The translations under genes were made by a program, and so were the position numbers. A DNA stretch of 63,999 bases, the filler included, from Stramenopiles sp. TOSAG23-6 (lineage: Eukaryota): NCBI GenBank assembly GCA_900128565.1. It is 11 parts of 11 records of this genome, joined end to end, with 100 filler letters (N's around TTAATTAATTAA, not from the genome) between each part and the next. Parts side by side here need not be neighbours in the genome. Positions count along the whole stretch, not along the records: positions 1 to 5,816 come from LT636826.1; positions 5,917 to 11,729 come from LT636827.1; positions 11,830 to 17,637 come from LT636828.1; positions 17,738 to 23,533 come from LT636829.1; positions 23,634 to 29,425 come from LT636830.1; positions 29,526 to 35,317 come from LT636831.1; positions 35,418 to 41,209 come from LT636832.1; positions 41,310 to 47,096 come from LT636833.1; 3 more parts are not named here. One strand, written 5' to 3'. Below are positions 3,836 through 63,999 of the stretch, one piece after another. Under the pieces are notes generated by a model, which saw only the letters and a list, made by a program, of their open reading frames with translations, did no database searches and had not been told where the DNA came from. Position 1 is the stretch's first letter. Each line of letters opens with the position of its first letter.

Positions 3836-5452
3836 TTAACCTTTGACAACAGCTACTGGGCGCAATTTAACTACTTTTTTCGATAATCCTGAATCGTGNC
3901 AAGTATCTACAACCTGTGTCACATGTATTTTGGAAAAATATTTCAACAAAAAAANTGTTAGGTANAAAATTTTCNAANAAAANAANCCATTGGAATTTGA
4001 AAAAAAATAAAACATACATCTTTATAACTTTCTGGTGCTTCCTCCATAACTAACTTTGGTGATGCNACTCGAATTGAAATTCCTTTTTTTTCTAAATTTT
4101 CTAAAACATCCTCATAATTNATTATACGCCGACTTTTTGCTCTACTTAAAGCGCGCCCTGCGCCATGACNAGTACTNCCCCCATNTTTNTTTCNTNCNTT
4201 CAGCCGTACCTGTCAGCACATACGAACAAGTGCCCATCGTTCCTCCAATTAGCACAGGTTGTCCAGTAAATTGATAATCAACTGGAATGAGTGGATGATG
4301 AGGTGGAAAGGCGCGAGTTGAGCCTTTCCGATGTACAAGAAGCTGTTTTGGTTTTCCGTGTACCATATGTTGCTCTATCTTTGCGATATTGTGTGATACA
4401 TCATATATAAGGTGCATGTCTAGATCNTCGGCAGTAGAATCAAACATTTTAGAAAANGCTTGACGTGCAAGAAATGTCATTGATGATCTATTCACCCAGG
4501 CATAATTTGCAGCAGCAGCCATTGCCTTCAAATATCGTTGGCCTTCTTTGCTTTGTATTTTTGCACAAGCTAATTGTCTATCATTGGTTTCAATATTATC
4601 CCGGACCATGGCTCTTTCCATTTCAATCAGTGAATCCGTTGCGACTTGATGCCCAAGTCCTCGACTACCTGAATGGATCATGACACACACCTGGCCTTTA
4701 TTATATAAACCCATTTTATTTGCTGAAAAATCATCATATATTTCATCAACCACTTGAATTTCGCAATAATGATTTCCTGCACCAAGTGTTCCAAGTTGAG
4801 GTAGGCCACGTTTTTTTGCACGACTCGAAACACAATTTGGATCAGCATTTAGCATCCGGCCATTTTCTTCACAATGCTCCTTATCCTCGGCCCATGCATA
4901 TCCTTCCCGGAGACTCCAATCCATTCCTAATTCTAAAGCGTCATTTAGATCATTAGCATTTGTCGGTATGATACCTCTGCTTCCAACACCAACAGGAATA
5001 TGATCGAACAATGACTGAGTCAATTTGTCCTTCTTNTCACACAGGTCTTTTTCATGAAGATTTGTTCGTAAAAGCCGAACACCACAATTTATATCAAATC
5101 CAACTCCTCCAGGAGAAACAACAGCGTTAGGGTCATCCATATCAAATGCTGCTACATTTCCAATGGCGAAGCCATATCCTGAGTGTATATCTGGTAAACC
5201 AATTGAATGGCCGACGATGCCCGGAAGTGCGGCAACATTTGATAATTGTTTTACTGCCGGAAGGAAGCCCCCGAAGCCTTTTGCATCGCAATGAAATCGC
5301 AGTTCATCCATCATCAGAGGTTCTAGTACAGAATTCACATAATAAAGAGCAGGCACTACCATATTTGGAACAAAACCCTTCTCAATGCGATACATGTGGC
5401 CTCCTACATGACTTATAAAAGCTTTTTCTTGTTCAAACGTTCGCCTCGGCAT
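3836..5452 (-). CDS. RTCB: tRNA-splicing ligase RtcB; intron 3923-4017; apparent frameshift in N-rich 4166-4200
   Basis: [36 protein letters not shown] and C-terminal EEAPESYKD|VTQVVDTx[11 protein letters not shown]. Confidence 0.97.
3923..4017 (-). other. Non-AG family intron (95 nt, GTATGT...AAAATACAT), phase 0
   Basis: Removal gives YKD|VTQVV; TACCTAAC core; AT on both flanks. Confidence 0.88.
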
Positions 5453-5816
5453 TTGAGTTTGTTCTAATCGTTATTATTGCATTCAATTGTATCACAATAT
5501 AGAATGGAAAAGGCCAATATGCTTGTGGTTCCAGAAGTTGATGTTCCTTCAAAGATTTGAATTTAATGCAAATTGAATATTATTTGGATGACAAAGTGCG
5601 AGAACAAATCCGAAATTGACTCGAGAGAGAACGTTCGAATTTTTTTTTGACCCCGAAAAATTTAAATTATACTAGCGCTAGGGTTGGGGGATTTTTTTGG
5701 GAGAGCGGATGATATTCTAAATCATACTTATAATATTACAGTAGAAAGTAGATACAGCCAATTTTTCCAACATAAATATCACATTTTTATTTTTTTATGG
5801 AATAGTAGGATGAGTT

Positions 5817-5916
5817 NNNNNNNNNNNNNNNNNNNNNNNNNNNNNNNNNNNNNNNNNNNNTTAATTAATTAANNNNNNNNNNNNNNNNNNNNNNNNNNNN
5901 NNNNNNNNNNNNNNNN
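5817..5916. other. Artificial contig spacer; also at 11730, 17638, 23534, 29426, 35318, 41210, 47097, 52983, 58868
   Basis: Identical 100-nt N-padded TTAATTAATTAA linker with stops in six frames; flanking contigs unrelated. Confidence 0.98.
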
Positions 5917-5969
5917 TACGAAATTTTGTACCTAACGATTTTTTTTTCAAATATTTTTCCAAAATACAT
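5917..5969 (+). other. 3' part of a non-AG family intron at contig start
   Basis: TACGAAATTTTGTACCTAACGATTTT...AAATATTTTTCCAAAATACAT then in-frame exon IIDGAKK. Confidence 0.8.
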
Positions 5970-6755
5970 ATAATAGATGGAGCAAAGAAATTTGCAAAAA
6001 CTGGAATTGCAGAAAGTGCTGCAACTGGAGAGTCAGACCAATACAAATTCTTTACATCTATTCTTCGAAAACATGTACATTTTCATTCATATTATGAATG
6101 TGTATTAATTTCTTTTTTTGTAAAAACAAATCGTACCTAACGATTATTTTTTTTCGTAAAATTTCGTGTTTTTTTCACAATATATGGAGTCCAAATAGAA
6201 GAAGAGACCAATGCACCAGTAGAATTTACACCTGGAATCCCGGGACCAAGTGGACCAAAAATTATTCTCCAACCTGCTTGCGGTGTTACTATTGATGAAT
6301 TATGTTCTATTTTTCCTGATCCTAAATCTGTCAAAATCAGTGCTCAGTCTACTTTAATCATCGGTCGAAAAGCGTCTATTCGCAATTTTAGTCTTGATGG
6401 CCATTTTTGTGTTTTACCTACAAATCTTGAAGAAAATGGAACATCTCAATCAAGAGAAACGATTTTGGAAATTAATGATTTGACTGTAAAAAATAGAGGA
6501 TCAAAATTTGTTGCATTGACAAAAGTAGAAATGAACGATCCTTCCATTCCTGAAAATTTAAAAATTCGTGGGTATAAGCTTATTGTTGACGAATGTGAAG
6601 TGTTTTGCTTAGGAGAGAAGAAGACTAATGGTGACATTGTTAATCGTAAGCGAACTCTAGAACCTGTGATGGGAGAGAAGTCATTGAAACGTCAAAAAAG
6701 CGACGAGGGCATAGACACGAAAAATGCGGTAGTGAATGGTCAAAGTGTACAGTAA
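5970..6755 (+). CDS. USP: UDP-sugar pyrophosphorylase, C-terminal part; exons 5970-6074 and 6186-6755
   Basis: ESAATGESDQY..ILRKH|GVQIEE..ISAQSTLII..IRNFSLDG..DPSIPENLKIRGY resembles plant USP C-terminus. Confidence 0.8.
6075..6185 (+). other. Non-AG family intron (111 nt, GTACAT...CACAATATAT), phase 0
   Basis: Contains in-frame stop; CGTACCTAAC core; removal gives ILRKH|GVQIEE. Confidence 0.85.
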
Positions 6756-6947
6756 AGAAAGAAAAAGTAAAAAGATAAATTCAATAAATTGTTTTTGTTA
6801 TTTTCCATTTGTTTTTTTTTTTATTCAATAAATTGTTTATGCTGTGGAAGTTCTCCAGGATGATTTGGTTAATGACTTGGCACATATTGGTACAGGTACT
6901 TTCCTTAGATATTGAACTAATGAATGAAATAGAAATTGTTTGACATT

Positions 6948-7042
6948 AAAATCATACAACAATACTTCGAAATTAAAAAAAATCGTTAGGTACAAAATTT
7001 CGTACGAAAAAATATTCAAAAAAAAAATCATACAACAATACT
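6948..7042 (-). repeat. Atypical family copy downstream of the DUF676 gene, bracketed by a 19-bp direct repeat
   Basis: Core TTTCGTACGAAATTTTGTACCTAACGATTTT on minus; AAAATCATACAACAATACT at 6948-6966 and 7024-7042. Confidence 0.8.
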
Positions 7043-7146
7043 GTACAATAAAATAGATTTTTAACATCTTTTATTTAATTTTATGTGCAATTTTATGTGC
7101 AATGTATTTACAATAAATAAACCTTTTTGTGCAATAGAATCGAATC

Positions 7147-9968: not shown

Positions 9969-11133
9969 ATGAGAGGCACTGTCTGCAGAATGTCCAAATC
10001 AATGATGGAATGTCGTAGTGTTATAGTAAAAGAATTTGGTGATCCCTCGGTCATGCAATTGACCAAAAAAACTATTCCTCAACCTGCAAGTGGTCAGGTG
10101 CAAATTAGTGTTGAAGCTGCTGGTGTCAATCCATCTGACACATACCAACGATTAGGACCTAACGGACCTTGGGCAGCAACGCCACATTTATTACCGAAAT
10201 TACCGTATACGCCTGGTAAAGATGGATCAGGAGTGATCACTGCTGTAGGAGAAGGTGTTACTAATTTTGAGGTCGGAGATCGTGTTTATACTAATGGTTC
10301 TATCACTGGAATGTTTGCTGAGTTTGCAGTTTGTAATACAAACCAAGTGTTTCCTCTACCGGATAATATTTCCTTCTCTCAAGGTGCTGGAATTGGTGTT
10401 CCTGCAGCGACAGCTTATAAAGCACTTTTAATGCGTGCTGGTATTAAAAAGGGTGAATCTCTCTTAATTCACGGAGCTTCTGGAGCTGTTGGCTTAGCTG
10501 CCACTAACATAGCCGTTGCGTGTGGGTGCACCGTAGTGGGTACAGCGAGTTCACAGGCGGGTGAAGCTGCTGTTATTGCTGCGGGGGCAACTGCCGTCGT
10601 AAATCATAAAAAGCCGGGATATCTTGAGGAAGCAGTGAGTGCTATTGCTGATAAAAGTAATGGTTTTGATGTGCTACTCGAAAATGCTGCGGATATCAAC
10701 CTTGTGAGTGACACTTCTGTCATGGCAAAAAATGGTCGAATTTGCATTGTTGGTTCGAAAGCGAAACCAATTCCATTTAATCCACGACTTACTATGCCAA
10801 AAGAGTTGGATATTCGTGGTGTGTTTCTTAGTGCGAGTGATGTATGTTTTATTTTATTTTTTTAATTCGAATTTGTTTTCATACGAAATTTTGTACCTAA
10901 CGATTTTTTTTTACTAACCAAAAAACCAAAAAAAAAAAAAATATTTTTCCAAAATACATCCTTCTGAAATTTCAGATATCCATTCAGAACTATTTACAAT
11001 GTTACAGACTGGCAAATTAAGTCCAAAAGTTGGTTTAGAACTTTCACTGGAAGAAGCTTCGAAAGCACATATTGAAGTAATGTCACCATCGAGTGGAGGT
11101 GCATGTGGAAATATTGTTGTTTGCATGAAGTGA
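9969..11133 (+). CDS. CRYZ: NADPH:quinone oxidoreductase (zeta-crystallin-like MDR); exons 9969-10841 and 10960-11133
   Basis: AAGVNPSD, LPYTPG, HGASGAVG; second exon supplies GKLSPKVG..LEEASKAH..GACGNIVV*. Confidence 0.9.
10842..10959 (+). other. Non-AG family intron (118 nt, GTATGT...AAAATACAT), phase 0
   Basis: Removal gives GVFLSASD|PSEISDIHSELFTMLQTGKLSPKVG, gap-free against recalled CRYZ. Confidence 0.88.
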
Positions 11134-11241: not shown

Positions 11242-11729
11242 TTAATTACGCTTCAAACCAAATTTTCCCAAATGTTTTACCAGTTCATCAACGGAAGGCA
11301 TACTTTTACTACTTAACTTTGAAAAAACTAATTGATCATTATAAGAGACTTCAAATGCTCCACTATGAAAATAGTTTTGAAAGAAATAATTTAGAGCGAA
11401 CAGCAAGTACTGTGAAAAAATATTTCATGAAAAAAAAATCGTTAGGTACGAAATTTCCTATGAAAAAATAAATAAATCTGAAATGAATGAGAAAACATAC
11501 ACACCAAATACTCTGAGACGATTTTCCTGACACCACAGAAGCGCAGCAGGTTCTGGCATATTTAACCATTTGAAACATTTCCCACCAAAAAACACAAATA
11601 TCATTCCAAAGGTTTGAAGCCAAGAAACAAACTTTGGTAAATGAGACATTGGAAATGTTCCAAGATGTACAGACCCCAAAACACCATCTTCTTCTAACTC
11701 CAAATAATTATCTTCTAAAAAGGTTTTCA
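11242..11729 (-). CDS. SELENOT: Selenoprotein T-like (Rdx family), C-terminal part, one intron
   Basis: WCQENR...HSGAFEVSYNDQLVFSKL..MPSVDELV resembles SelT C-terminus. Confidence 0.8.
11405..11500 (-). other. Family intron (GTATGT...CACAGTACTT); alternative in-frame GT-AG boundaries 11502-11410
   Basis: AAATTTCGTACCTAAC core, in-frame stop inside. Confidence 0.75.
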
Positions 11730-11829: not shown

Positions 11830-11913
11830 TGGAAAAATATTTCAAAAAAAATTTGTTAGGTACAAAATTTCGTACGAAAAAAAATTTCGAATTTGAAAAA
11901 AAATAAAACGTAC
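11830..11913 (-). other. Family intron truncated at contig end (GTACGT donor), phase 1
   Basis: GTACGTTTTATTTT..TTTCGTACGAAATTTTGTACCTAAC..AAATATTTTTCCA. Confidence 0.8.
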
Positions 11914-15128: not shown

Positions 15129-15194
15129 CATATAATAATGTAAAATAAATGAATTTTGCTTTTGATTTTCAAGTTAAATTGTAAAATGAATGAA

Positions 15195-15255
15195 TTTTGT
15201 TTTCAATTTCAAATTTATTTTTTTTTATACGAAATTGTATACCTAACAAAAAGTA
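15195..15255 (+). repeat. Degenerate family copy between TTLL and SURF6 stops
   Basis: TTCAAATTTATTTTTTTTTATACGAAATTGTATACCTAACAAAA without recognisable termini. Confidence 0.6.
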
Positions 15256-17291: not shown

Positions 17292-17538
17292 TCAAATGTT
17301 TTCTTTTGTAGTTAAAATACCTATTAAAGGATTGCAACTTTCTCCTGGATTAAGAAATTCGACCTCTTCACTTTCATTACTTTCAATGCCAATTTTCTGA
17401 CGCTGAAATTTGCATCTAAATTCTGAAACAATATTACTTACCTTGAGATGTTCATATAAACGTTTAGCAACTTCTTCAATAGACCATCTGGGACTAAATG
17501 GATATCTATAATCAAAATCATCAGCGCTAGTTGAAAGC
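17292..17538 (-). CDS. Terminal exon of an unidentified protein
   Basis: Open frame DFDYRYPFSPRWSIEEVAKRL directly after a family-type 3' end CACAATACAT. Confidence 0.5.
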
Positions 17539-17637
17539 ATGTATTGTGAAAAAATATGAAATCACAAAAAAAATCTACGATTTTTTGTATTTTTTGTATT
17601 TTTTGTATTTTTTGTATTTTTTGTATTTTTTGTATTT
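17539..17637 (-). other. 3' part of a probable family intron containing a 9-mer AAAAAATAC array, at contig end
   Basis: ATATTTTTTCACAATACAT terminus as in other members; core not visible. Confidence 0.6.
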
Positions 17638-17834
17638 NNNNNNNNNNNNNNNNNNNNNNNNNNNNNNNNNNNNNNNNNNNNTTAATTAATTAANNNNNNN
17701 NNNNNNNNNNNNNNNNNNNNNNNNNNNNNNNNNNNNNCTCAAAGCAAATATCGTTCAGAACAGGTCATGTGTCGTAATCACTCCCTATAGTTATCCTTAT
17801 GAATACAATGTCTTGCTCAAATAATGTCACTTAC

Positions 17835-18446
17835 CGTGCGTCAAAGTCTGTACCAAGTGAATCCCAGATTGTAGGCAACATTTCCTTTCTAGGACGGCTA
17901 AGGACGCGAAGAGTAATATTAACATTCTGAAGATCTTTAGTACCTGTAACAGTACTAATATTGTTTGGGCGGGTGCGCACATCAAACTCAACTACGTCCT
18001 GTTTTATTGAAAGTATGGATAGGTAAACGTCATAGTTAGTTAAAAGTGTATAGTAAAAGAGAATACAATAGAAGTGCGGATCGGGAGACATTTGAGACGC
18101 ATGGAACAATTCCTTTATTACCGTGTCAGGATTAGCATGAAAATTATCATCGTCAGATCTAGCGAAGCCCGCTAGTCCGCAAAACATATACATCATTCCC
18201 GGATAAAGAAAAATAGGACACATGACAGAAATATGTACTTTACGTAAGAAAACTTACCCATAAGAAAGGAACCTTAAAATGTGTACCTTCTCCGTATACC
18301 TTCTGTCGAATTCCACGGATTTTATCAAATATAACGACGCGTTTACCAGCATCAACATCAAATAAACATTGCTGTGAAAGCGCTATGCCACCGCCGATTC
18401 CGACAGCGGCCTTTGCAANATTTGTTAATTGTCTAGAGAGGCTCAT
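17835..18446 (-). CDS. PHB1: Prohibitin 5' part (duplicate contig)
   Basis: Same as 98-709. Confidence 0.9.
18121..18202 (-). ncRNA. Box C/D snoRNA (duplicate contig)
   Basis: Same as 384-465. Confidence 0.78.
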
Positions 18447-18696
18447 TCTATAATATATTGGAGAACACTCTTAGTTTGTGTTGCGTTCTGAGAACACGAG
18501 GCGACACTTTCGTCGGACTTTGNCANTTTTTAGCNGGNTTTNGCTCTCACTACACGAAATATCGNTTTTTTTCGNTTAGGGTTAGGGTTTTGTAACGGTA
18601 TTTTTAAGACTTGCTTCAAAACCTTTTAAGCTTACTTCATTCATCTAAACTATCTTAGTTTAATACAATAAAGCTTATATTGTAATTAGCAAAAAG

Positions 18697-21378: not shown

Positions 21379-21572
21379 AATGATGATGTTGTGTAAGTGT
21401 TTATTATTAAGNTTAGGGTTTTGTAATTGGTTATATATCTTTCCCACTGTAGAAAACTTGNGGAAGTGCGTATGCCTATTGAANCTTTTGTAAAAAAATG
21501 AATATAATAGTATTATAATGTAAAAAAAAGAATAAAATACGATGTAAAAATATTTTGTATATAATTTTATAT

Positions 21573-23189: not shown

Positions 23190-23633
23190 TTGAGTTTGTT
23201 CTAATCGTTATTATTGCATTCAATTGTATCACAATATAGAATGGAAAAGGCCAATATGCTTGTGGTTCCAGAAGTTGATGTTCCTTCAAAGATTTGAATT
23301 TAATGCAAATTGAATATTATTTGGATGACACAAAGTGCGAGAACAAATCCGAAATTGACTCGTTCGAATTTTTTTTTGACCCCGAAAAATTTTTAAATTA
23401 GGGTTGGGGGATTTTTTTGGGCGGATGATATTATCTAAATCATACTTAATATTACAGTAGAAAGTAGATACAGCCAATTTTTTCCAACATAAATATCACA
23501 TTTTTATTTTTTTATGGAATAGTAGGATGAGTTNNNNNNNNNNNNNNNNNNNNNNNNNNNNNNNNNNNNNNNNNNNNTTAATTAATTAANNNNNNNNNNN
23601 NNNNNNNNNNNNNNNNNNNNNNNNNNNNNNNNN

Positions 23634-23760
23634 AAAAAAAAATATAAAAAAAATTTTTTGGGAAAAAAATTTTTTTCCAAAAAAAAAAAAAAATTGTTAG
23701 GTACAAAATTTCGTACGAAAAAAAAAAAATTCAAATGTAAAAAAAATAAATAAAACATAC
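23634..23760 (-). other. Family intron truncated at contig end (copies 29526-29652, 35418-35544)
   Basis: AAT|GTATGTTTTATTT..TTTCGTACGAAATTTTGTACCTAAC. Confidence 0.8.
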
Positions 23761-25049: not shown

Positions 25050-26356
25050 ATGAGTGATCCAAAAAGTGAAGTGAAACCTCACCTACGTTCCTTAATCCGT
25101 GGCAAAGGAAAAGTCATTGTTACAGACACTTTTTCCGCAGCTCAACCAGGTCAATGTAGAAAAAAGGCTGCAGCGTCTGCATTAGTCTTCGCCAAGTCAA
25201 ACGTGTCTTTGTCAACCATTACACCCGATAGTATTAGTGTACATGGTGGGGATCATGTAGTAGGTACAGTAGATGATAACACTTCTAAAATAACAAAAGG
25301 ACCTCCAAAAAAAAACAACTGGATCGACGACGCATTAGACCAACTATCTGATGCCAGAGGTGTTCAGTGGCAAAAAAAAGTTGCTGCCCAACGAGAAATA
25401 TCAGCAAGAACTACTGAACTAAACAGACGTAATCGAGGCGCATATGAATTGAAACATCATAAGGAGGCTATTCGACAAAACGTATGTTTTAACCATAACA
25501 ATATTTTTTTTTAATTCATTATTTTTTTCATGACTTTTTCAAAAAAAATTTCAATTTTTTTTTTATATTATTTTTGTACCTAACAAACACAAATCAGTTT
25601 TTCACAAATATATTCTTACCATACATGATGTACGAGCTACTGATAGAGAATTAGTAATGGATTTATTCGGTACAGATTTTGCAATTCCACCGCCAGAACC
25701 AAAAAAGAAAAACCAAAGTCAAAAAAGTAAAAAAAGTAAAAAAATCAAAAAAAGTAAAAAAAATATATATTGTAACCCTAACCCTACTGTGGATAAAAAT
25801 ATTGCAAAAGCGTGTCAAAATGCATCATTTATTGCTCATTCAGCAAGCAATTGTATCACTAGTTTTTTATCTACTTTTGATAGACAAATGGAGTTTCTAT
25901 TTGAAGAATTTAATAANAAAAAANGTAGTGAANAAAAAAAANGTANTTNCTGANTTNACAAAAAATCTACAAAAAATAAAAAATAGTGATAAATTAGCAA
26001 ATCGAGATGAAATTAATGATGAAGTAGAAGCATTATTTGGCATATTTGATGAAGAATGTCGTAGTGCGCCGATAGAATGTAAAATCAAAATAGCCGAAAA
26101 TAATAATTTGAATATTGATGATTTAATTCATTGTGTACAATTCCAACTAGGGTTAGGGTTAGGGTTCATTACAATTGGTTTTCATGATCATTATCCATCC
26201 CATTCTCCACCTATATTATATATAGATGAGATAAAGAATGATAAAAAGAAAATAGAAAAATTGAGACATTTGTTACATTATATGCATGCTGATGGAAATG
26301 GTGAAATTTGTGTTTGGCAATGGATTGAAATGTTGAAATCTACATTCAATAAATAA
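25050..26356 (+). CDS. RWD-domain protein; intron 25482-25626; apparent frameshift in N-rich 25915-25960
   Basis: EINDEVEALFGIF..YPSHSPP..GEICVWQWIEML RWD signature. Confidence 0.7.
25482..25626 (+). other. Non-AG family intron (145 nt, GTATGT...ACCATACAT), phase 0 (copies 31374-31518, 37266-37410)
   Basis: Joins IRQN|DVRATD in frame; internal CAG at 25597 is out of frame. Confidence 0.75.
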
Positions 26357-42742: not shown

Positions 42743-45334
42743 ATGAAAAGAATGCATTTGCTCTGTAAAAAAATGATTTCATTAATACTGTGTAGTATGC
42801 TTGCAAGTACGGTTGAAGCTACTAACTGCGTTTCTATAGTTTGGCCACGACCATTTTCTGTTATATCAAATACTTCTATCGTCATTGTGAAAGTTTCTTC
42901 ATCTTTCTCGAAAAGTAGTATGAAAGGTGTCTTACACGACGACAGAGATAATCTCATAAATTCAAGCAAAATTACGCTTCCTTGTCCTCCAATAGAACGT
43001 GTATGTATATATTTAGATCATTGGTTGACAGAATTTTGCTTACCTGTGAAAGAAAACTACAGAGATGCCAAGGAGTTTGATTTGCATTTTGATCTCAGAG
43101 AGATCGGAGGAGTCACTCTTGGAATACACGTAATTTCCATACAGGAATTTACGCAAGGTATCTCATCATATGCACGAACAACTCGTTTTTGCGATAATTG
43201 CACTATTATAGTACAAATAGTTTCACCACCACTAATAGAACTAGAAGGAGATGAATTAAGTGCTGCACGCAATATTACCAATCATTTTGTACTTCCAATA
43301 TTGGATCAAAAAATGTTCACTTCTTCGATATCAAGTTCATGTATAGATAGTAATATGACAATGTCTTGTGCATTTAAGAGAATAGCAATATTAAATGGTG
43401 AATTTATTCTATTTGATAAGTTTAGTGCTGACTCAAAAAACACTACACTAGGTACCCAGTTACCTATTATTAGCCCAACAAAAAATACAAAAAATACAAA
43501 AAATTCTTTAGGTACAAAATATTCTGAAAAAAATAAAGATGCTGTGAGATTTTCAGGCAATTTTATTCAACCTTCATTCAGGCACCGTGTTGCCATGGAA
43601 AATGTTCCTCCTATTCATGTGCGTTTTCAAAATTGAATTTTAATTTCAAATGTTTTTTTGTACGAAATTTCATACCTAACAAAATTTAAAAAAAAAATGA
43701 AATATTTAAATGCCAGACATCTTAAAGTAGTAGACATGCATTGGCAGATTGCTAAACAAAATTGTCATTTTTATAGTAAAATTCCTACTTTTTTTGTATC
43801 ATTGTTTCAATTTCCCCAGCACTGGCATACATTTCACATAAGTTTTCATTATAAATTTCGAATTTTTATTTTTTCGTACAAAATTCCCTACCTAACAAAA
43901 AAATCGAATTTGACATATTTTCCCAAAATTTATGATTCTTTTATGGCATTGTGGATCACCATAATGAAGAATGCATCTTCATCATTACTTCGTGATGATA
44001 GAAACATCCAAATTGTTTTCATGTAAGTTTTTATTATTTATTGAACAAATGTTGTTAAAATGTATTTTTTTCTATTTCGAATAATTTTTTTTCATAGAAA
44101 ATTTTGTACCTAATAAAAAAAATCAAATTTTTAAAAAATATTTTCTTAAAATTCATGAATCCAGACTTCCCTCCAAGTGATAAATTAGAAATTCATCTTG
44201 GTAAATATTTGTTCTTATTTCGTATGTTGAGTCGGCATCAATTCCTCTCTTGGGCAGACTTGAAAAATTTTGAATCAACTAAAAAAAATGAAAAAAATGA
44301 AATAATTTGGAATTTTTGTTTTGATCACGTCATCACAGGATTTCGTGATGAATTAAATATGTATGACCACGATGTTACTAATGAACGTGATACATATAAT
44401 AATAGTAATAATAATAATAACAATAATCATTATATCAATAATAAGAAGAAGAAAAATGATACTCAATGTAACCCTAACACTACTCAACATTTAAATTGCA
44501 AATACAAAAAATTTAGTCAACAATTTTGGATAGATAAATTTCTTGAATTTTTTTATATCAACTTAGGTTTAATCAAAATTGAGATGACTACATATATGGA
44601 ATATCTTACCGATAGGTATTACTGTAATTCTGAATTTTTGGATAAATATTGGATTGATAGAAAAAACAAAACACAAAAAAAACACGAAAAACCAATAGTT
44701 TCAATAATTGAAAGAGAAAATCGTAAAATTCTGAATTGGAATGAAATTGAAAATATATTTCTAAAAAAAGGTTGTATGTTGTCTACTTTAAAATTTCAAA
44801 TGTATTGTTCAATTTTTGTTTGTTTTTGTACCATAATTTGTACCTAACAAAAAAATCAAATTTTTGAAATATTTTTTTCACAATACATATTCAGTTCAGA
44901 GGCTTCGAATGGAAAAAATGACAATGAGAGAACAAGTCATTGCTATGCATGAAACAACTATTTTGATTGGCTTGCAAGGAAGTGGATTAGGTAATAGCTT
45001 ATTCTTACCTCCAAACACGAAATATCAACAAATTCATGTGATACATTTATTTCCATATGGCATTTATCCATGGTTAGGAAATAATTTTTCACGAATCGCA
45101 TCATTGAATCAAAGAAAGTATACCAAATGGGTGAATAAAGACATTTCATTATCTAGATTTAAAAAACCATTTACTATTGGAAAACACGAAATATTGCCAA
45201 ATTCGAAAGAATATATTTTATTTTTAGAAGAGAATTTAAATAGAGTGTGGGATTCTCTATGGTTTACTGCGTTTCAAATTGTCACTAATCAAGACACATT
45301 TGTTGATATTCATTGGCTTGATGAAATTATATAG
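42743..45334 (+). CDS. Glycosyltransferase family 61-like protein with four family introns
   Basis: HWHTFH|DSFMALW, SIIERENRKILN, MTMREQVIAM..ILIGLQGSGLGNSLFLPP, LFPYG. Confidence 0.78.
43619..43720 (+). other. Non-AG family intron (102 nt, GTGCGT...GCCAGACAT), phase 0
   Basis: Joins PPIH|LKVV; in-frame stop inside; CAG at 43716 out of frame. Confidence 0.75.
43838..43933 (+). other. Family intron with AT donor (96 nt, ATAAGT...CAAAATTTAT), stop-free and in frame
   Basis: Interrupts HTFH|D motif; CCCTACCTAAC core. Confidence 0.7.
44023..44156 (+). other. Non-AG family intron (134 nt, GTAAGT...AAAATTCAT), phase 2
   Basis: Joins IVFM|NPD in frame; TTTTGTACCTAAT core. Confidence 0.78.
44774..44888 (+). 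other. Family intron (115 nt, GTATGT...CACAATACAT), phase 1
   Basis: Joins KKG-Y-SVQRL; an in-frame AG 6 nt downstream cannot be excluded. Confidence 0.75.
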
Positions 45335-47042: not shown

Positions 47043-47096
47043 ATGTATTTTGGAAAAATATTTCAAAAAAAAATTGTTAGGTACAAAATTTCGTAC
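47043..47096 (-). other. 3' part of a family intron at contig end
   Basis: GTACGAAATTTTGTACCTAAC..AAATATTTTTCCAAAATACAT then ATA ATA ATT CAG. Confidence 0.8.
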
Positions 47097-53082: not shown

Positions 53083-53148
53083 GTTAGGTACAAAATTTCG
53101 TACGAAAAAAAAATTTAGACAAAAAATTGAAAAAAAATTAAAACATAC
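53083..53148 (-). other. Family intron truncated at contig start
   Basis: TAT|GTATGTTTT..TTTCGTACGAAATTTTGTACCTAAC. Confidence 0.8.
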
Positions 53149-55303
53149 ATATATTTCAAGATATATTTGTAAAGCAATTGCCGCTTTCTTTGACAACTTT
53201 ACATTACTATTTTTTGTATTTTTTGTATTTTTTGTATTTTTTGTATTTTTTGTATTTAAATTGATCCACCACTGTTTCGTACCAATAACATTTCTAAGAG
53301 CATTTAAAACAGGTTTGACACAAAGTTGATGTTTGGCCAATCTTGCTATAGCAACAAATCTTTTATACACTATATCACTTGTGTACCACAATTCTATAGG
53401 ATCATCTTGTATATGATCATTAGGGTTAGGGTTAGGGTTAGGGTTAGGGTTTATATTATCTTTTTTATTTGAAACAATTTCATTACCTAAAGATTTTTTA
53501 TGTAAAGAATTTGGTACAGAAATGAGTAAATGCAAAATAACAGGTAAAAGCGAGATTCCTTGGATAGGAAAATTTTGAACGACTCTGATGGCTGCATCCA
53601 AGGCGTTATTCCTTATCTTCTCATATATTGTAAAGAAAATTAACTTTTTTTTGTTAGGTACAAAATTTACTACGAAAAAAAAAATTTAAATTTTAAATTT
53701 TAAATTTTTTAAAATTAGAGTTAGGGTTGAAAAATTACATTACGATGCCATAAAATCGTTGATAGAATAAAAACAATTATGTCAATGCTGTATCTATCTG
53801 ATATTGTATTCAGGTTAGGGTTAGGATCAATTTCGAATGCTCCAGATGTATATATACCGGTACCAGGTACCTTTTTTTCTGTGAATAATTTGTTTAGCCA
53901 TGTCAAAGTTAAATCATGTATTTTAGAAAAATATTTCAAAAAAAAATCTAAAAAAAATTGTTAGGTACAAAATTTCGTATGAAAAAAAAATTATTTACTA
54001 AAAAAAAAAAATAAAACATACATTGAAAGCGGTATTATTATTCTTCATTTCTACTTTTCCTACAGATTCTGAACTACCTATACTTTTATTATTATAACTG
54101 TGTTGAAAGACAGAAATGATACTTTGTTCAAGTAAATTAAAAACATGCTGACGTAGAAAAGATATATGGATTATGAAAAAATATTTCAAAAAAAAAATCG
54201 TTAGGTACAAATTTCGTACGAAAAACAAATTTAGACAAAAAATTGAAATGAAAACGTACATCTTCCTCTGTGAGGCTTGGATCTCTACCAATAGTTTTTT
54301 TGTTAGACCTCTGAAATGTTGAATGTAAAACAAATAAAATATCACTTACAGAATGATTAAATTTATGTATACCATTTGAAGATTTTGAATGTCTTATTAG
54401 AAAATCAAAAACTTTTTCTTGAACGTCTCTCTTCGCTCTTGTCCAAAGTCGAAGATCGTATAAAAGAGTCAGTATAAATGTACACATTCTTGCGCTTTTC
54501 TGTTCACACAATGTTTTTGCAAGCGTCTTTACTGCATTGAATAAATCTAGTGTTATATATGATGGTGTTGTTTCAAGAAGAAGATTAGTAAGACACCGAA
54601 GCCCTGTTAGTTGTTGTTCTCCTTCACCTCTGCGTCGTTCAACGCCACCAGTAGGCGAAGGGACAATGGTGACAGAAATCAACTGATATAAAGCGTAAAC
54701 ATTTCTCCTCACAATGGCAGCGATGAGCCAAACAGCTTGGGAATAACACTTTGGATTCAAATTTTTAGAGAGTTGCATTCTAGTTTTTCCTATATACTTA
54801 CCACGAACATTTACTTGATTACTTTCGTCAAAATCAAATATTTCTTTTGTTGAAATACACTGTAATAGAGGAAGTAATGATATTACCCCACCCAAACAAC
54901 GTAAAGAAGCAATAATTGACACATTATCATCATCCAAATGTTGATCTTCGGAGATAGACACTCGGGCGAAAACTCGTTTTAAAAGTCGTAAAAGTATAAA
55001 TAAGAGAGTATCATCGGTTTTGACTTTACTGTCAATACGGAAGTGTCCAAATATTTCCCGAAGAAAAGGCACAGGACAGCTAAACAGTAAAAATATTTCT
55101 AGAATTCGAGCAATCCGTTTTTCAATCCTTGATGGTGTAGTTTGATTTGTACTCTCAGCATGGACTTCAAAAAGCCAACGGGATAAAGAAATACCTGAGG
55201 CATGGTAACGTGCACAGAAAGAAGCATCTGACTGTAAATTATGCTCGAATTTATCAAAATCAGCAGAATTAAAAGATTGCACAGCATTCTTTAGGTCATT
55301 CAT
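53149..55303 (-). CDS. Neurobeachin/BEACH-family-like ARM region, 3'-truncated, with four family introns
   Basis: SLRCLGGVISLLPLL and LLYDLRLWTRAKRDVQ resemble the neurobeachin DUF4704 region; exons join in frame. Confidence 0.6.
53420..53449 (+). repeat. Interstitial (TTAGGG)5 inside a coding exon (NPNPNP on minus)
   Basis: Five perfect units. Confidence 0.9.
53623..53738 (-). other. Non-AG family intron (116 nt, GTAATT...TACAATATAT), phase 0
   Basis: Joins WHRN|EKIRN in frame. Confidence 0.75.
53916..54021 (-). other. Non-AG family intron (106 nt, GTATGT...AAAATACAT), phase 0
   Basis: Joins TAFN|DLTL in frame. Confidence 0.82.
54166..54259 (-). other. Non-AG family intron (94 nt, GTACGT...CATAATCCAT), phase 0
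   Basis: Joins TEED|ISFLRQH in frame. Confidence 0.8.
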
Positions 55304-56302: not shown

Positions 56303-58867
56303 CTACTTAAAGAAACTTTGGATGGACTTAAGTGGTTTCTTTGATGAAGTTTGACTCCTTTTCCCCTTCCCTTTCCCTTTACTCTTATTTTCTCTTTTCT
56401 TGCTCTTTGTTGACTTCTGTTTATAGCCATATGGTAAACCTAGTTCCGTAGCTCTATCCTTTTCAGCTCGCATTTTTTTTAACCGTGCATTCATATCCTT
56501 TTTCGATATTTTCTTTGAAAAAGTTGATGCAGTCACTTGATCATTGGAAGCCGCTAATGCTTGAGTTGACTGAGATAATCCACGTTTATTATACTCACGT
56601 GTAAATGCAGATTGTGTCTTTGACTCAATAGAATTGTATATAGCTGCAGAGGAGGAAACACCAGACCCGGGAGTTCCAAGATGAATTTCTTTCATAGTCT
56701 CAAAAAGATCATCACGACTAAGACCATATTCTGCCATTCGATCAAGAGTTTCTCCAATACCGGCTATTTTTTTATTATATAATGGTCCAAGTAATGAAAT
56801 TCGCATCATTTCCATATAATCCATTCTGATACGTCGAGAGCTGCATGATGTGACAGTATTCACGTGTAAAGCCATTTCAGCGATCCATCGTTTATGTTTG
56901 GTTCTCTTCGAATTCTTACCAAACCATTCTGGAAATTGTGACCGAAAACCTCCGCCACCACCAGAATATCCCGAGTTGTTTGTAGGAGGACCTGCAGCAT
57001 AAAATCCAGCTTGGACGTTGAGCATACCAACAGTAGGGAGTAGAACATAATCTTGTTTTTTATTGAGTGTCTGTGAAACGACATCTGCATCACAGATTGC
57101 ATCAGCAGCAAGAGCCATTCTTTTCAATTGATCCAATTGCTTTCCACCAGATGATTTCACTGTATCAACATAACTTTGTTGAACTAACAGAGGGACCATA
57201 CTAAAATCAATAAAAAACCCATCAAGACGATCACCAATAGATTTCCTACCTTTACCTCCACCACCAAGAATAACTTTCGAACCATCCATTGGAGTCAGAC
57301 GAATAATTGAATCCTTTTTGATCAGTTTTATCTTATCCTTGATTTCCTGTGAAGATAATTGTTTACTACTACGTGCATACATCTGTAATGCAGTAATGAC
57401 TTGACGAATATCGTTACCTGTAGAATCCACAAGTTCCATCATAGCATCCATTTCAACTGCAAGTCCTTCTCGTTTAGCGATAATCATCATACGTCGTGCT
57501 ACTTGCTGAGTATGAGGACGTCTAAATGGCAAGTCTAAACATACACTCTTGAGCGAACTTATTTTTTTACTCTGTACATCATTACATATACAAATAACAG
57601 GTGATTTACATGATCTAATTAGATCTGCAAGGGCTGCACAACCTCCGCGGTCTCCACCACCCATTCCATCAACTTCATCCATGATCAAAACTCTTTTCTT
57701 TGAGGCTCCAAAAGATTTAGCTCTTGAAAACGATGATGCAATAGATGAACTATTCGTAGCTTCACAAAGTTCTTTTATTGCACTCTTACTTCTTTTATCC
57801 GATGCATTAAATTCAAGGGGTTCAAAACCGGCAGCTCTCGCAACTAACATCGCAGCAGAAGTTTTACCGATACCAGGTGGTCCTGAAAGAAGGCAAGCCT
57901 TACCTTTTAATGCATTTTTACCCTTTTTAACTGTAGTACCAGAAAACTTAGATGACCAAGAATTGAGCCAATTTGTCATTCTTTTAATTGTATCAGTATT
58001 GCCTACTAGATCCCTAGGTTCCCTAGGGCGATGCTTTACTGACCATAATTGATTATCCGCTGCTGATAAAGCAACATTTGAATGACTAGAATCATTAGTT
58101 TTGGAGCTACTAGAACCACTGGAACTACTCGAACTCTTTGCTTCCACATTTTCACTCTTTTCGTCTTTTATTGCATTTGGATCTGGTGGAACATAGTCGT
58201 CTTCCACTGCGCCTTCAGGATCATATTTGGGATCAATTAATTTGAACAATTCAGTTTCTGAAATGATCTTACACGTTTTAGCAAACTTACCACTCGCCTT
58301 TCTATACTTTGAGCTTTCACATGTTTGTCGACCATCTTCAAGTACCACCCCTGCCAAGAGATAATCCGTAACTCCACTTACACCTGACTTGACTAATCCA
58401 CCACATGCTTTGATTAAAGCCTCTACAGCTCCACGTTCTAACGATTCTTGGACACCTGTTATAACAAATGACATTCCCTTTCCATTTTCTTTGACAAAAC
58501 AACCATCTCTAGGTTTCGGTTTCGGCTTTTGGCCGGCCATTGGAGGTGGAGCAGAGCCACCAGACCTTTTGTAAAATGCATATCCAGACTTTTTTTTCGA
58601 AGGAGCTGGAGCAGACGCGAAGTCGGGTAATTCCATTGTTTGACTTGAACTAATAGATTTTGTTGTTTTTGTAGATTTTGAACTTTTTTTAGATTTCTTC
58701 TTTGGCTGAGCACATGATGAAGACGTAGAAGTCTTTGTCTTTTTTGACTTTTTCGAGGATTTCTTTTTCGTGGGGGAGGAGGACTCATCAACGGGAGCAT
58801 ATGCTTCATCATCACTACTGATACTAACCACTTGCTTTTTAGCCTTTCGTTTCTTCGGAGCCTTCTT
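56303..58867 (-). CDS. RFC1: Replication factor C subunit 1, 5'-truncated
   Basis: BRCT FVITG, SGPPGIGKT, EFNASDKRS, IMDEVDGMGGGDRGG, FPEWFGKNS, AFTREYNK. Confidence 0.96.
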   Translation of the reverse strand, partial: KKAPKKRKAKKQVVSISSDDEAYAPVDESSSPTKKKSSKKSKKTKTSTSSSCAQPKKKSKKSSKSTKTTKSISSSQTMELPDFASAPAPSKKKSGYAFYKRSGGSAPPPMAGQKPKPKPRDGCFVKENGKGMSFVITGVQESLERGAVEALIKACGGLVKSGVSGVTDYLLAGVVLEDGRQTCESSKYRKASGKFAKTCKIISETELFKLIDPKYDPEGAVEDDYVPPDPNAIKDEKSENVEAKSSSSSSGSSSSKTNDSSHSNVALSAADNQLWSVKHRPREPRDLVGNTDTIKRMTNWLNSWSSKFSGTTVKKGKNALKGKACLLSGPPGIGKTSAAMLVARAAGFEPLEFNASDKRSKSAIKELCEATNSSSIASSFSRAKSFGASKKRVLIMDEVDGMGGGDRGGCAALADLIRSCKSPVICICNDVQSKKISSLKSVCLDLPFRRPHTQQVARRMMIIAKREGLAVEMDAMMELVDSTGNDIRQVITALQMYARSSKQLSSQEIKDKIKLIKKDSIIRLTPMDGSKVILGGGGKGRKSIGDRLDGFFIDFSMVPLLVQQSYVDTVKSSGGKQLDQLKRMALAADAICDADVVSQTLNKKQDYVLLPTVGMLNVQAGFYAAGPPTNNSGYSGGGGGFRSQFPEWFGKNSKRTKHKRWIAEMALHVNTVTSCSSRRIRMDYMEMMRISLLGPLYNKKIAGIGETLDRMAEYGLSRDDLFETMKEIHLGTPGSGVSSSAAIYNSIESKTQSAFTREYNKRGLSQSTQALAASNDQVTASTFSKKISKKDMNARLKKMRAEKDRATELGLPYGYKQKSTKSKKRENKSKGKGKGKRSQTSSKKPLKSIQSFFK

Positions 58868-60278: not shown

Positions 60279-61360
60279 ATGGCAATATGGAATTCAATTG
60301 GTGTATCAATCACAGAATCCTTTAATATCATCCGTAGAGACTACAAAGTAACATTATTTCTTGTCCCTGTTGTCACTTTCGTCGCTCGAAAGATTTACAT
60401 CAAGTATACTGATATATATGTTCGTCCAAGTCAGTTGAAAAATTTTTATAGTGGTAGAATAGTCTGGATAACTGGAGCATCTTCTGGCATTGGAGAGGAA
60501 ATTGCAGTTGCATTATCAAAATATGGAGCAAAAATAGTTCTAAGTGGAAGGAATGAAAATCGACTTTCACTTGTCAGCCAAAAGTGCCAGAAAGTTTCTT
60601 CAATTAAAGTTGGTGCAAAAGTTGTACCTTTCGATTTATCGGCACCACAAGTAGCGCTTCAAAAGGCAGCACAAGCAGCTGCTGAAGCGTGGAATGTACC
60701 GGTTGATATTGTTGTTATGTGTGGAGGAATTTCCTCCAGATCTGCAGTAGAAAATACAGAATATGTAGTCGATGAAAAACTATTTAAAGTGAATTTTCTT
60801 TCAAATGTGAGTATTGTTAAGTCTGTTTTACCAGGAATGTTACAACGAAAAAGGGGACATTTTATAGTGATATCGAGTATGCAAGGATTAGTTTCAATAC
60901 CATTTCGTTCAAATTATGCAGCTTCAAAGCATGTACGTTTTATTTTTTCGAATTTATTTTTTTCGTACTAAATTTTGTACCTAACGTTTTTTTTTGTATT
61001 TTTTTTTTTTTCACAATACTTGCCTTGCATGGTTACTTTGGATCGCTACGTTCTGAGGTTAGCGACCGCAATGTCGGAGTTACTATTGTATGTCCTAGTT
61101 ATGTAAAAACAAAGTTATCATTAAATGCACTTCGAGGTACAGGGGAGACTCATGGGATTATGGATGAAACAACTCAATTGGGAATGGAAGCTAGCTATGT
61201 TGCAAAAAGAACTATTCTTGCAGCAATGTCTAAAAAATCTGAGATTTGGATTTGTAGTTGGAAAGAACTTTTTGGAACTTTATTAAGTCGTGCTTCACCA
61301 GAATTATTTTCTTACATTATGTTACAACGGGCAAGGAAAGGTTGGTCTGTGAGAAAGTAA
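60279..61360 (+). CDS. Short-chain dehydrogenase/reductase (DHRS7-like); exons 60279-60932 and 61022-61360
   Basis: WITGASSGIG, YAASKH|ALHGYFGSLRSEV. Confidence 0.9.
60933..61021 (+). other. Non-AG family intron (89 nt, GTACGT...CACAATACTT), phase 0
   Basis: Restores YAASKH|ALHG; first downstream AG is 36 nt into the exon. Confidence 0.88.
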
Positions 61361-61482
61361 GTAAACCCTAACCCTAACCCTAGGTTACTGCTACAAGTTG
61401 AAACTGTCATTTTTGACCCGTAGTTACGTACTAGAACTTTACTAAAAAGATAGATACATTCTAGTAAAACGTTTTAGAGAGA

Positions 61483-62535
61483 ATGAATTCGGAGTTTGAT
61501 TCAACAAACCGAAGAGGACAGAAAAAAAATAAGCATAGTAAAATGAAACATTTTGGAGTCCGCATGCACGGAACTCGAAAACTATGGGTTGAAAAGCACC
61601 ACGAAATGCACAATAATCTCATTGCCACGGCTGAGTCACATGTACGAAAGAACATTGAGAAACATGACCAACGTGTTNNNNNNNNNNNNNNNNNNNNNNN
61701 NNNNNNNNNNNNNNNNNNNNNNNNNNNNNNNNNNNNNNNNNNNNNNNNNNNNNNNNNNNNNNNNNNNNNNNNNNNNNNNNNNNNNNNNNNNNNNNNNNNN
61801 NNNNNNNNNNNNNNNNNNNNNNNNNNNNNNNNNNNNNNNNNNNNNNTTTTTCAAATTCGATTTTTTTTTTATAAAAATTTTGTACCTAACGAATATTTTT
61901 TCAAATATTTTTCCAAAATACATGATCGACCTGATGACCCTTGGCATAAAATGTGCAACACTTATAAAACGCATCGAGGAAAAGCTGTGAAAATAGGCAA
62001 AGAACACCACCAAAAAACAATAGCACGGCACAATAAAGCATTTATGGAGACATTACTCAAGACTACACCAAAGTTATCGAAAAAAGACTGGGATAGGCAT
62101 TGGAAACGTCATCTACATAAAAGAGAGGTCATGGGGAAAGTCGATAAACCAGTTACATCTTATCCTGCAACACACACATCAAAGTTTGATGCTCGCTCAC
62201 CCAAAAGTGAGTTTGTGGGAATTCCTGAATATGATGCTCATTTAGATAAAAGTGCTCAAAATTGGACGAAAAGTCGGGCCTGTCGTGTGGCTACAAAAAA
62301 TTATGAGGCTGCCTTGAAGAAAGAGTATAATGAACGTATTGCAGCTCGAAGGAAAAGAAGCCCACAAGCTGCGAAGAGTAAACTAGTGAAATTAAGGAAA
62401 GCTTCACCAACGAGTGACTTAAAAGCAAATTCCGCTACGATTTGCATCCCAAAAAATACGTCAACAGCAAATAGGAAGAAAAAGTTCAATATATGCAGTT
62501 CAAGTGAAAGTGAAAGTGATAATGATTTGTATTAA
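61483..62535 (+). CDS. CFAP97/Hemingway-like protein; gap and family intron 3' end at 61847-61923
   Basis: IARHNKAFMETLLKTTPKLSKKDWDRHW resembles CFAP97 domain; CCAAAATACAT then GAT CGA. Confidence 0.5.
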   Translation: MNSEFDSTNRRGQKKNKHSKMKHFGVRMHGTRKLWVEKHHEMHNNLIATAESHVRKNIEKHDQRVXXXXXXXXXXXXXXXXXXXXXXXXXXXXXXXXXXXXXXXXXXXXXXXXXXXXXXXXXFQIRFFFYKNFVPNEYFFKYFSKIHDRPDDPWHKMCNTYKTHRGKAVKIGKEHHQKTIARHNKAFMETLLKTTPKLSKKDWDRHWKRHLHKREVMGKVDKPVTSYPATHTSKFDARSPKSEFVGIPEYDAHLDKSAQNWTKSRACRVATKNYEAALKKEYNERIAARRKRSPQAAKSKLVKLRKASPTSDLKANSATICIPKNTSTANRKKKFNICSSSESESDNDLY

Positions 62536-62583
62536 ATTTTTTATTCTTTAAAATATTTGAAATGATTTTTTATCATTAGTAGA

Positions 62584-63999
62584 CTATATTGGCGACTTCA
62601 TCTGTCGTTGCGTCTGTTCTTTCCATGTTACTGCATCTGCATATTTTGGACGCAAAGAAAGACAATGATCAAAACATTCTAAAGACTTCGTATACTTTTT
62701 CAAATAATAAAGACAAATACCTTGATTATACCAATTAACATAATGTTGACCGAAATCTTTGAGACTTGATTGAAATAATTCAATTGCCCGATGATACTTT
62801 TTGATACCCATGAAGAATCTACCTGCTTCAAAAGCTGTATCTTTTTTCTTATCAACTGGAAATATTTGAGTGCATACTTTTTCGACATCATACTCAGCAT
62901 CACTTTGAATTTTTTGAGAGGCTTTCGGTGTCTTTTCAATAATAACTAACTTAAATTTGTGAAAGACTTCTATGTCGTGATTAGAAAGTCGCAATATAGC
63001 TAAAGCTGCTTTTAAATTCATTGCTTTTGACTCTTTCTTAATACGCCGTTGGAGCGCAACAAAGTCATCTGGGCCAAACTCTACTAAGCTTTGTTTCCAT
63101 TGTAAACGAAANNNNNNNNNNNNNNNNNNNNNNNNNNNNNNNNNNNNNNNNNNNNNCCAAATATAAAAGCGCAGCATTTGAAGCCGTCCATGTGAGGTGT
63201 TATTAGTGTAGTGCCTCCGCTCAGTTCTGTGAATCTAGCCATTGCATGGAAATTAACCATAAATGAAAATGAACCATGAATTGCTATATGAGGATTGGAG
63301 TGAGTCGCCATGTCATTTTTATCAGCAAAAGCTTTATCTCCACAAATTATGATGAGTCCTCTTTTTTTCCCTACCCAAGCCTCTAATTTTTTAAGCATAC
63401 AGAGACCTCCCCAGGGAATCACAACATTTAAATCTTTCTTTGGATTCTTTGTACTCTTTGAATAATACTTTTTGTTTTGTATTTCATTTATTATTTTATT
63501 GGAATTGATTTGTTTTTTTTTAATTTCTTGAGTGAATGTTTCATAATATTCTTGAAGTATTGAATTCATTCGTTCATCACATGTATTGTGAAAAAAAAAA
63601 TGTACAAAAAAACTCGTTAGGTACGAAATTTCGTATGAAAAAAAATTGAATTGGAAATTCATATAAAACGTACTATAGTAATCTATACGTTTAGTTGTTT
63701 TAAAGTCTAGTTGTGGAGTAGGTCTGAAGTCCCATGTACATCGCACCCGTCTAATAATATCAGAGTTGTATGGATATTCTTCTTTATTATCAGAAACTAA
63801 AGTACAGAGCCCTTCATACAAGTTATATTGTGTTTTACCTATTTGTTTTGTAACGGTTGTGTCACCTTCATTTAGTTTCACTTTAAAAAAATCCTGTTTC
63901 ATTGAATTTAAAGTATAATTACATATGACTACAACTGGCGGACTTTCAATAGCAATATTTTGATCTACTAGAGCTTCTTTTTTAGCCTGTGCAACTGCA
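62584..63999 (-). CDS. Putative SAM-methyltransferase-like protein with C-terminal TPRs, 5'-truncated
   Basis: GDKAF..PHIAIHGSFSFMVNFHAM; TPR WYNQGICLYYLKKYTKSLECFDHCL. Confidence 0.6.
63581..63673 (-). other. Family intron (93 nt, GTACGT...CACAATACAT), phase 1, stop-free in frame
   Basis: TTTCATACGAAATTTCGTACCTAAC core and full termini. Confidence 0.78.

Follow-up and report, generated by a model that had tools for sequence, protein, structure and literature searches.

A candidate introner family with GT donors and AT or TT 3' ends in the genes of a marine protist

Here we analysed a 63,999-nt stretch of DNA (the window) from GenBank assembly GCA_900128565.1, Stramenopiles sp. TOSAG23-6, in which ordinary genes are interrupted by many similar short inserts that resemble introns, with a GT donor and an AT or TT end. 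The window consists of 11 length-sorted contigs (5816 down to 5032 nt), artificially joined by ten 100-nt linkers (N44-TTAATTAATTAA-N44). Contig 4 repeats contig 1 (1-5816 = 17738-23533), contigs 5, 6 and 7 are identical (23634-29425 = 29526-35317 = 35418-41209), and with the four duplicate contigs collapsed the unique sequence amounts to about 45.6 kb. The G+C content is 30-39%, and the open reading frames (ORFs), mostly one long ORF per gene, encode ordinary eukaryotic proteins. These include BRE1, RtcB, a DUF676 esterase, a tubulin-tyrosine ligase (TTL), SURF6, DPH2, RFC1, a BEACH-like protein, SFT2, a HECT ligase, a short-chain dehydrogenase (SDR) and an NADPH:quinone reductase, as well as EGF-repeat, RCC1, RRM and TPR proteins.

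The inserts share one consensus, made up of GTAYGTTTT, a T-rich stretch, TTTCGTACGAAATTTTGTACCTAAC, a T run and YAMAATACAT as the last ten bases. The branch-like 12-mer TTTGTACCTAAC is found 37 times at two or fewer mismatches, compared with 6.6 expected and a maximum of 13 in 100 shuffles. Using an nhmmer profile built from 13 complete copies, and counting with the duplicated contigs collapsed, we determined that there are 21 distinct loci at E <= 3e-6. Three weaker matches lie at 15200-15254 (E 2e-5), 17537-17587 (E 0.018) and 43496-43535 (E 0.0012), the last of these a doubtful antisense match within an ORF. By context, the family comprises 21 genic loci and two degenerate intergenic copies (6973-7017 and 15200-15254). 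All 21 introns detectable within the window are of this one type; no GT-AG introns were found there, and the ORF gaps that were inspected look intergenic, though not every base is annotated. Similar copies occupy unrelated positions in different genes, as introners do, with 21 genic loci spread over the roughly 45.6 kb that is unique. Five contig ends fall inside element copies, in keeping with the way a high-copy repeat fragments an assembly.

Fourteen copies are complete, with lengths of 89-145 nt. The 5' end is GT in 13 of them, the exception being H2 (cat^AAGTTTT, where ^ here and below marks a boundary), and at the 3' end 12 have AT and two (D and O) have TT. All four 3'-only partial copies also end in AT, as does a copy from outside the window (L001, below). 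The donor hexamers are GTATGT, GTACGT, GTAAGT, GTGCGT, GTACAT and GTAATT, and a CTAAY branch motif lies 31-45 nt before the 3' end in 13/13 copies (C counted by its second site). T makes up 49% of intron bases. Pairwise identity between copies averages 67%, with a 25-nt core, containing the perfect 12-nt palindrome TTTCGTACGAAA, that is identical or near-identical in many. Compared with a U2-type intron, the donor (GTRNGT), the CTRAY branch site and the pyrimidine tract are all present, and the terminal AG is absent.

Every one of the 21 genic copies runs sense to its host gene. By a codon-usage score, 26 of 27 exon flanks come out in favour of the sense strand, and one is a tie (5970-6074, 15.9 vs 15.3). 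Phase 0 accounts for 9 of the 13 complete GT copies and for 11 of the 16 GT-bearing copies in which the donor is present. The first-pass annotation of this DNA had described the motif pattern, the 21 genic and two degenerate intergenic copies, the range of 89-145 nt, the U2-type donor with its CTAAC branch site (here GTAYGT, with CTAAY 31-45 nt from the end) and the uniform sense orientation, all of which reappear in our counts. Its majority of phase 0 copies also holds, but its figure of 15/21 is not checkable for the 3'-only partial copies. The coordinates of all copies are given in the table.

Table. Copies of the insert family along the window, with their ends, lengths, phases and surroundings.
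Copy	Position	Strand	Ends	Length (nt)	Phase	Gene or context	Remarks
Intron A	3923..4017	-	GTATGT...ATACAT	95	0	RtcB	no AG
Intron A duplicate	21660-21754					repeated contig	identical
Partial, 3' half only	5917..5969	+	...CCAAAATACAT				cut by contig start; E 2.6e-9
Intron B	6075..6185	+	GTACAT...ATATAT	111	0		joined frame open >100 codons; no AG
Degenerate, core only	6973..7017	-				intergenic	19-nt direct repeat on both flanks
Intron C	10842..10959	+	GTATGT...ATACAT	118	0	NADPH:quinone reductase	no AG
Intron D	11405..11500	-	GTATGT...GTACTT	96	2		skips AG 5 nt before end
Partial E, 5' part only	11830..11913	-				SMN-Tudor gene	cut by contig start
Degenerate	15200..15254	+				intergenic, between TTL and SURF6 genes	
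Partial, 3' part	17539..17587	-	...CACAATACAT				E 0.018; preceding (AAAAATAC)n run extends to contig end
Partial F, 5' part only	23634..23760	-	GTATGT...		0		duplicates 29526-29652, 35418-35544
Intron G	25482..25626	+	GTATGT...ATACAT	145	0		duplicates 31374-31518, 37266-37410
Intron H	43619..43720	+	GTGCGT...AGACAT	102	0		skips AG 4 nt before end
H2	43838..43933	+	cat^AAGTTTT...				without GT; E 1.2e-6
Intron I	44023..44156	+	GTAAGT...ATTCAT	134	2		
Intron J	44774..44888	+	GTATGT...ATACAT	115	1		no AG
Partial, 3' half only	47043..47096	-				JmjC/cupin gene	contig end
Partial K, 5' part only	53083..53148	-			0	BEACH-like gene	contig start
Intron L	53623..53738	-	GTAATT...ATATAT	116	0		exon 4 open 158 codons
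Intron M	53916..54021	-	GTATGT...ATACAT	106	0		
Intron N	54166..54259	-	GTACGT...ATCCAT	94	0		no AG
Intron O	60933..61021	+	GTACGT...ATACTT	89	0	SDR gene	no AG
Partial, 3' part	61847..61923	+	...CCAAAATACAT				after N gap
Intron P	63581..63673	-	GTACGT...ATACAT	93	1	TPR gene	no stop on read-through

Removing each insert from its GT to its terminal AT or TT leaves the downstream frame open in 13/13 GT-bearing complete copies, over 28 to more than 100 codons, the minimum of 28 being the distance to the natural RtcB stop. For intron L, the donor was set at GTAATT (53738) for frame restoration. If the insert is read through instead, a stop comes up within 1-40 codons for 12 of the 13, with P as the copy without a stop. 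In RtcB, the junction YKD^VTQVVDT corresponds to YKDVTQVVQT of Vitrella P0013, and the exons match the RtcB Pfam profile at positions 345-398 and then 400-426 across intron A. The quinone reductase junction SASD^PSEISDIH aligns without gaps to SASSPDEIGAIH of P0122, a relative that is 74% identical and whose ORF is unbroken at the intron C site; that contig is either DNA or cDNA. The SDR junction is YAASKH^ALHGYFGSLRSE, with adh_short profile positions 2-154 followed by 155-187. Frame alone leaves the boundary unfixed because an equal shift of both ends preserves the frame, and the junctions of L, M and N rest on frame alone because three small exons of the BEACH-like gene had no Pfam match. 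In the conserved genes, the shifts that give the same mRNA are -2 to +2 for A, -2 to 0 for C and -1 to +1 for O, and only 0 (GT..AT/TT) and -1 (TG..CA/CT) fit all three together. Between these, GT..AT/TT is the natural reading.

The introns have no usable 3' AG. No AG occurs anywhere in six of them (A, B, C, J, N and O), and AG is depleted in the introns as a whole, with 12 seen vs 32.6 expected. Extending each intron to the nearest in-frame downstream AG would cost 3 conserved residues in RtcB, 16 in the reductase and 12 in the SDR. Two introns would have to skip an AG close to the end: in H, splicing at the AG 4 nt before the end gives ACA TCT TAA, a stop, and in D the AG 5 nt before the end fits only with the upstream exon in phase 0. 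Codon usage in D scores +24.4 for phase 2 vs -6.0 for phase 0, and because it supports phase 2, the AG of D would be skipped as well. Based on protein colinearity and reading frame, the non-AG 3' end is well supported. The first-pass claims that most inserts break the frame, that removal from GT to AT or TT rebuilds the proteins and that the nearest AG is usually out of frame or deletes conserved residues agree with these results, with RtcB, reductase and SDR all colinear.

Other features of the inserts hint at a mobile origin. Of the 16 GT-bearing copies in the window with the donor present, 12 follow an exon that ends in AT, and the direct repeat across the boundaries has a mean of 2.6 nt, compared with 0.75 for random pairs (0/20,000 resamples reached 2.6). 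With the flank included, the ends of consensus-like copies read ATGTAT...ATACAT, a terminal inverted repeat of 5-6 nt. No boundary position varies among loci while matching within a locus, and an AT that stays constant does not prove a true duplication. In the hairpin-type non-conventional introns of euglenids and Amoebophrya, the two intron ends pair in a stable stem; in minimum-energy folds of seven copies from the window, the intron ends are paired in three. The first-pass annotation was upheld in reading the inserts as sense intervening sequences with U2-type signals and a non-AG end. It lacked the family's introner-like character, which, given the AT/AT flanks and the short inverted repeat at the termini, looks like that of a miniature inverted-repeat transposable element (MITE). 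It also lacked the precedent, in passages of PMC13326754, of 3'-AT introns handled by a U2-type spliceosome in Fritillaria.

Copies were also found beyond the window. The Logan protein P0121, which is 99% identical to the window reductase and differs from it at 2 residues, ends in ...SASDVCFILFF. Because P0121 reads into intron C, the insert is kept in a second, non-identical DNA contig (or in unspliced RNA). When JGI metagenome contigs were searched for the 25-nt core, one locus came up, L001 (3221 nt, 35% G+C), which is absent from the window and carries a complete copy in sense orientation, acat^GTATGT...CACAATACAT^gg. Removal of this copy joins two ORFs in frame, as worked out by hand from the sequence and the ORF list. 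Core-motif scans of viral contigs and of genome contigs gave no matches in either set. Sequencing runs listed as sharing words with one contig include DNA and RNA runs, the RNA ones with 6-22% of the words sampled, and no conclusion is based on them.

Taken together, the copies probably belong to a single, recently multiplied, transposon-like family of U2-type introns, or introners, that carry a YAT 3' site and reside in nuclear genes. Each copy would supply a U2-type 5' site (GTAYGT at its first base), a CTAAC branch site and a T-rich tract, and the excised unit would end 31-45 nt past the branch site at YAT^, or rarely at CTT^. The 3' cut would fall just past the apparent second copy of a 2-nt AT target duplication, AT^GTAT...ATAC-AT^. 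In the simplest scheme, AT[GTAT...ATAC]AT, the element would carry the donor and the branch site, and the 3' site would come after the second AT. Splicing would then take out the element plus one AT, leaving the mRNA unchanged and restoring the original frame. The major spliceosome would remove the inserts from RNA with T in place of the usual G as the terminal intron base and the A at -2 mostly kept, and the family itself would have spread through DNA transposition. A broader version, in which the major spliceosome of this lineage has changed its 3' rule from YAG to YAT genome-wide, passing AGs a few bases upstream, and in which nearly all introns stem from one introner burst, is tentative, and we lean somewhat against it. 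For H2, the frame is kept only if a 96-nt AT..AT unit is removed or if the copy is retained, its read-through being open. Such a copy could be exonised or dying, could represent an AT..AT variant or could reflect a 2-nt sequencing error.

Several observations weigh against an introner family spliced in this way. The inverted repeat measures merely 5-6 nt, and the "target duplication" is an invariant AT, which would look the same if it were a target preference or a part of the element. Mean identity among copies is only 67%, and folding of seven copies shows no clear gain in stability over shuffled sequences (z from +0.11 to -2.09). Conservation pins only three junctions, which still permit the -1 shift (TG..CA or TG..CT), and both P and H2, the latter without a GT, could remain in the mRNA with the frame intact. 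Protein searches returned no near-identical spliced product. The best RtcB homologue is 77% identical, the single 99% match to the quinone reductase is the unspliced P0121, and the BEACH-like exon had no match at E <= 1e-10 among proteins of 191-609 amino acids.

The closest competitor moves both boundaries by 2 nt, giving AT...AC introns that the major or minor spliceosome could remove. The upstream exon ends in AT in 7 of the 13 complete copies, where a -2 shift would yield the same mRNA, and most copies would then end in TAC^. However, the shift alters the product in D, G, J, L, O and P, turns the SDR motif SKH^A into SKL^A and replaces the uniform GT with AT, GT, AC, TT or TA at the 5' end. 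Some U12-type introns do tolerate non-AG 3' ends; their signals are a donor of the form [AG]TATCCTT and the branch site TCCTTAAC located 10-26 nt from the 3' end. The inserts instead carry GTAYGTTTT, with no ATATCC or GTATCC donor, and ACCTAAC at 31-45 nt, with no TCCTTAAC near the 3' end. We consider AT...AC introns unlikely. A different objection is that these are ordinary GT-AG introns whose AT ends come from mis-set boundaries or sequence error. The AGs 4-5 nt upstream of the proposed ends in D and H would agree with this, as would the similarity of the consensus TTTTTCACAA to TTTTTCACAG, but in the supported frame a splice at these AGs of D and H runs into a stop, there is no AG to use in A, B, C, J, N and O, and downstream AGs remove conserved residues. 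The same ends also recur in 19 independent copies, including L001, and error of this kind is hardly credible.

It could also be argued that the inserts are never removed from RNA, either because the genes are broken or because ribosomes hop over them (translational bypass). P0121 reads through intron C, and the read-through frames of P and H2 are open. Elsewhere, stops within 1-40 codons would truncate at least 12 genes, including the conserved housekeeping genes RtcB, SDR and quinone reductase, and we know of no translational bypass of 89-145 nt in a nuclear mRNA. This explanation is very improbable. Removal at the DNA level, in the manner of ciliate internal eliminated sequences, with the assembly representing the unprocessed genome, would explain short, AT-rich inserts that interrupt coding sequence with short direct repeats at their ends. 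An excisase has no need for sense orientation (21/21), a U1/U6-type donor or a CTAAC branch motif, and the insert is present in two other sequence sources, P0121 and L001. To our knowledge, nothing suggests nuclear dualism in this lineage either. The strict sense orientation points to a strand-specific process at the RNA level, for which DNA excision offers no account, and we regard programmed DNA elimination as extremely unlikely.

The nearest parallel to AT-ending introners is found in the larvacean Fritillaria, whose non-canonical introns were reportedly described by Henriet et al. in 2019. According to the available passages of PMC13326754, most introns of F. pellucida and F. borealis are removed without GT/AG by a U2-type spliceosome, with no involvement of the minor spliceosome. 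In those passages, AT is reported more often than any other 3' end, for 44% of introns in F. pellucida and 34% in F. borealis, and a YAY triplet stands at the intron end and often before the 5' site as well. Introner transposons are proposed as the source (PMC13326754 and PMC11282704, in the parts available). The window inserts resemble these introns in the missing 3' AG, the AT end, the U-rich tract and the proposed introner origin. A counterpart to the YAY triplet is also present, with CAT or TAT ending 12 of 14 copies and NAT preceding 12 of 16 donors. In contrast, the 5' ends of Fritillaria introns are reported there as non-canonical, with AG/AC and AG/AT dominating and very diverse termini, whereas the inserts here begin with GTAYGT and form one homogeneous family, in a protist rather than a larvacean. 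Given this published precedent for both 3'-AT introns and introners, the AT-ending introner with a textbook donor is a new variant in a new lineage.

Introners are transposon-derived intron families known from Micromonas, Aureococcus, Chrysochromulina, dinoflagellates and others (Gozashti et al. 2022, PMC9860276, as excerpted). In Chrysochromulina, the element brings the 5' site and the 3' site comes from the duplicated target (PMC9860276). Relative to that account, the window family is similar in its many short, alike copies, its unrelated gene positions, its AT-rich composition compared with exons and its aquatic protist host. It is also similar in having its own 5' site and a putative target-derived 3' site, with mRNA length unchanged after insertion and splicing. 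It differs in its AT or TT end, as the introners in those excerpts have GY 5' sites and GY/AG core nucleotides. The introners of Amoebophrya, in the passages available from Farhat et al. 2021 (PMC7789003), have inverted repeats of 8-20 nt, hairpins and no consistent terminal dinucleotide, and do not involve the minor spliceosome. They share with the present family the repeated introns, boundary direct repeats, terminal inverted repeats and non-GT-AG ends. Unlike them, the window copies have an inverted repeat of 5-6 nt, a fold that is not significant and uniform termini. Our literature search returned no paper combining "GT-AT" with "introner", and none among the matches listed paired "introner" with Picozoa or MAST terms. 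In the main texts on MAST and Picozoa genomes, as far as these were available (PMC5778133, PMC8163842, PMC12614181 and PMC8599508), no passage concerns intron termini, and the supplements may hold splice-site tables.

The host is a marine protist and not a larvacean. In a FastTree tree of RtcB, printed without support values, the window sequence falls outside a monophyletic Metazoa, among protists. For the quinone reductase, the best named relatives are picozoan single-cell proteins (COSAG05, 72% identical; SAG31, 58%). The window RFC1 ORF (56303-58867, -) is identical to the database protein P0241 except for five in-frame gaps of 7-20 amino acids. The source label of P0241 starts with GSMAST32, which from its naming style we take to denote a MAST-3-type marine stramenopile. 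A tunicate host was dropped after the RtcB tree, the reductase relatives and the P0241 label. A picozoan host, considered because of the reductase relatives, conflicts with the P0241 label and its MAST-3-type stramenopile, and in our view the near-identical P0241 outweighs the picozoan relatives. The DNA of all five P0241 gaps is bordered by GT..AG, and gaps one and two are conserved in the relative P0242. Judging by these sequences, the gaps look like spurious micro-introns of a gene model built on the GT-AG rule.

The 3' AG is among the most constant signals in eukaryotic gene expression, and in the second catalytic step it is recognised through non-Watson-Crick contacts, made with the branch adenosine and with the intron's first base. 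Fritillaria indicates that a U2-type spliceosome can forgo the AG, but there both intron ends are scrambled. A lineage that combines a textbook donor and branch site with a change of only the last base, G to T, would isolate the question of the 3' end. If the tentative genome-wide change from YAG to YAT is true, this lineage would also be the cleanest natural system in which a 3' splice site is chosen independently of AG. The factors pointed to would be U2AF1/2, Prp8, Slu7, Prp18 and Prp22. A gene finder restricted to GT-AG introns will get the genes of such genomes wrong, as the gaps of P0241 seem to illustrate, and introner surveys based on annotated GY-AG introns would overlook a GT..AT/TT family entirely.

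A few further features of the window were noted. An Rfam scan of the whole window gave no matches. Many single Ns occur in contig 1 and its duplicate, and RtcB has a frameshift-like break near 4142-4212. The 19-nt direct repeat that flanks the intergenic copy at 6973..7017 (region 6900-7100, -) is AGTATTGTTGTATGATTTT. Microsatellites of the form (AAAAATAC)n are found both within an intron copy (17540-17637, -) and in a coding exon (53149-53250, -), where they are translated as KNTKNTKNT. Telomere-type TTAGGG dimers or longer runs have 39 matches at one or fewer mismatches, compared with 0.09 expected, at 839, 16778, 23936, 25776, 26147-26164, 27373, 29194-29382, 53420-53449 and 61366-61383, and TTAGGG-type repeats are also present at about 2290-2340 of L001. 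Some of these runs lie directly at stop codons or gene ends, and others are in frame within coding exons as (NP)n; in the BEACH-like gene, for example, (CCCTAA)5 reads NPNPNPNPNPN.

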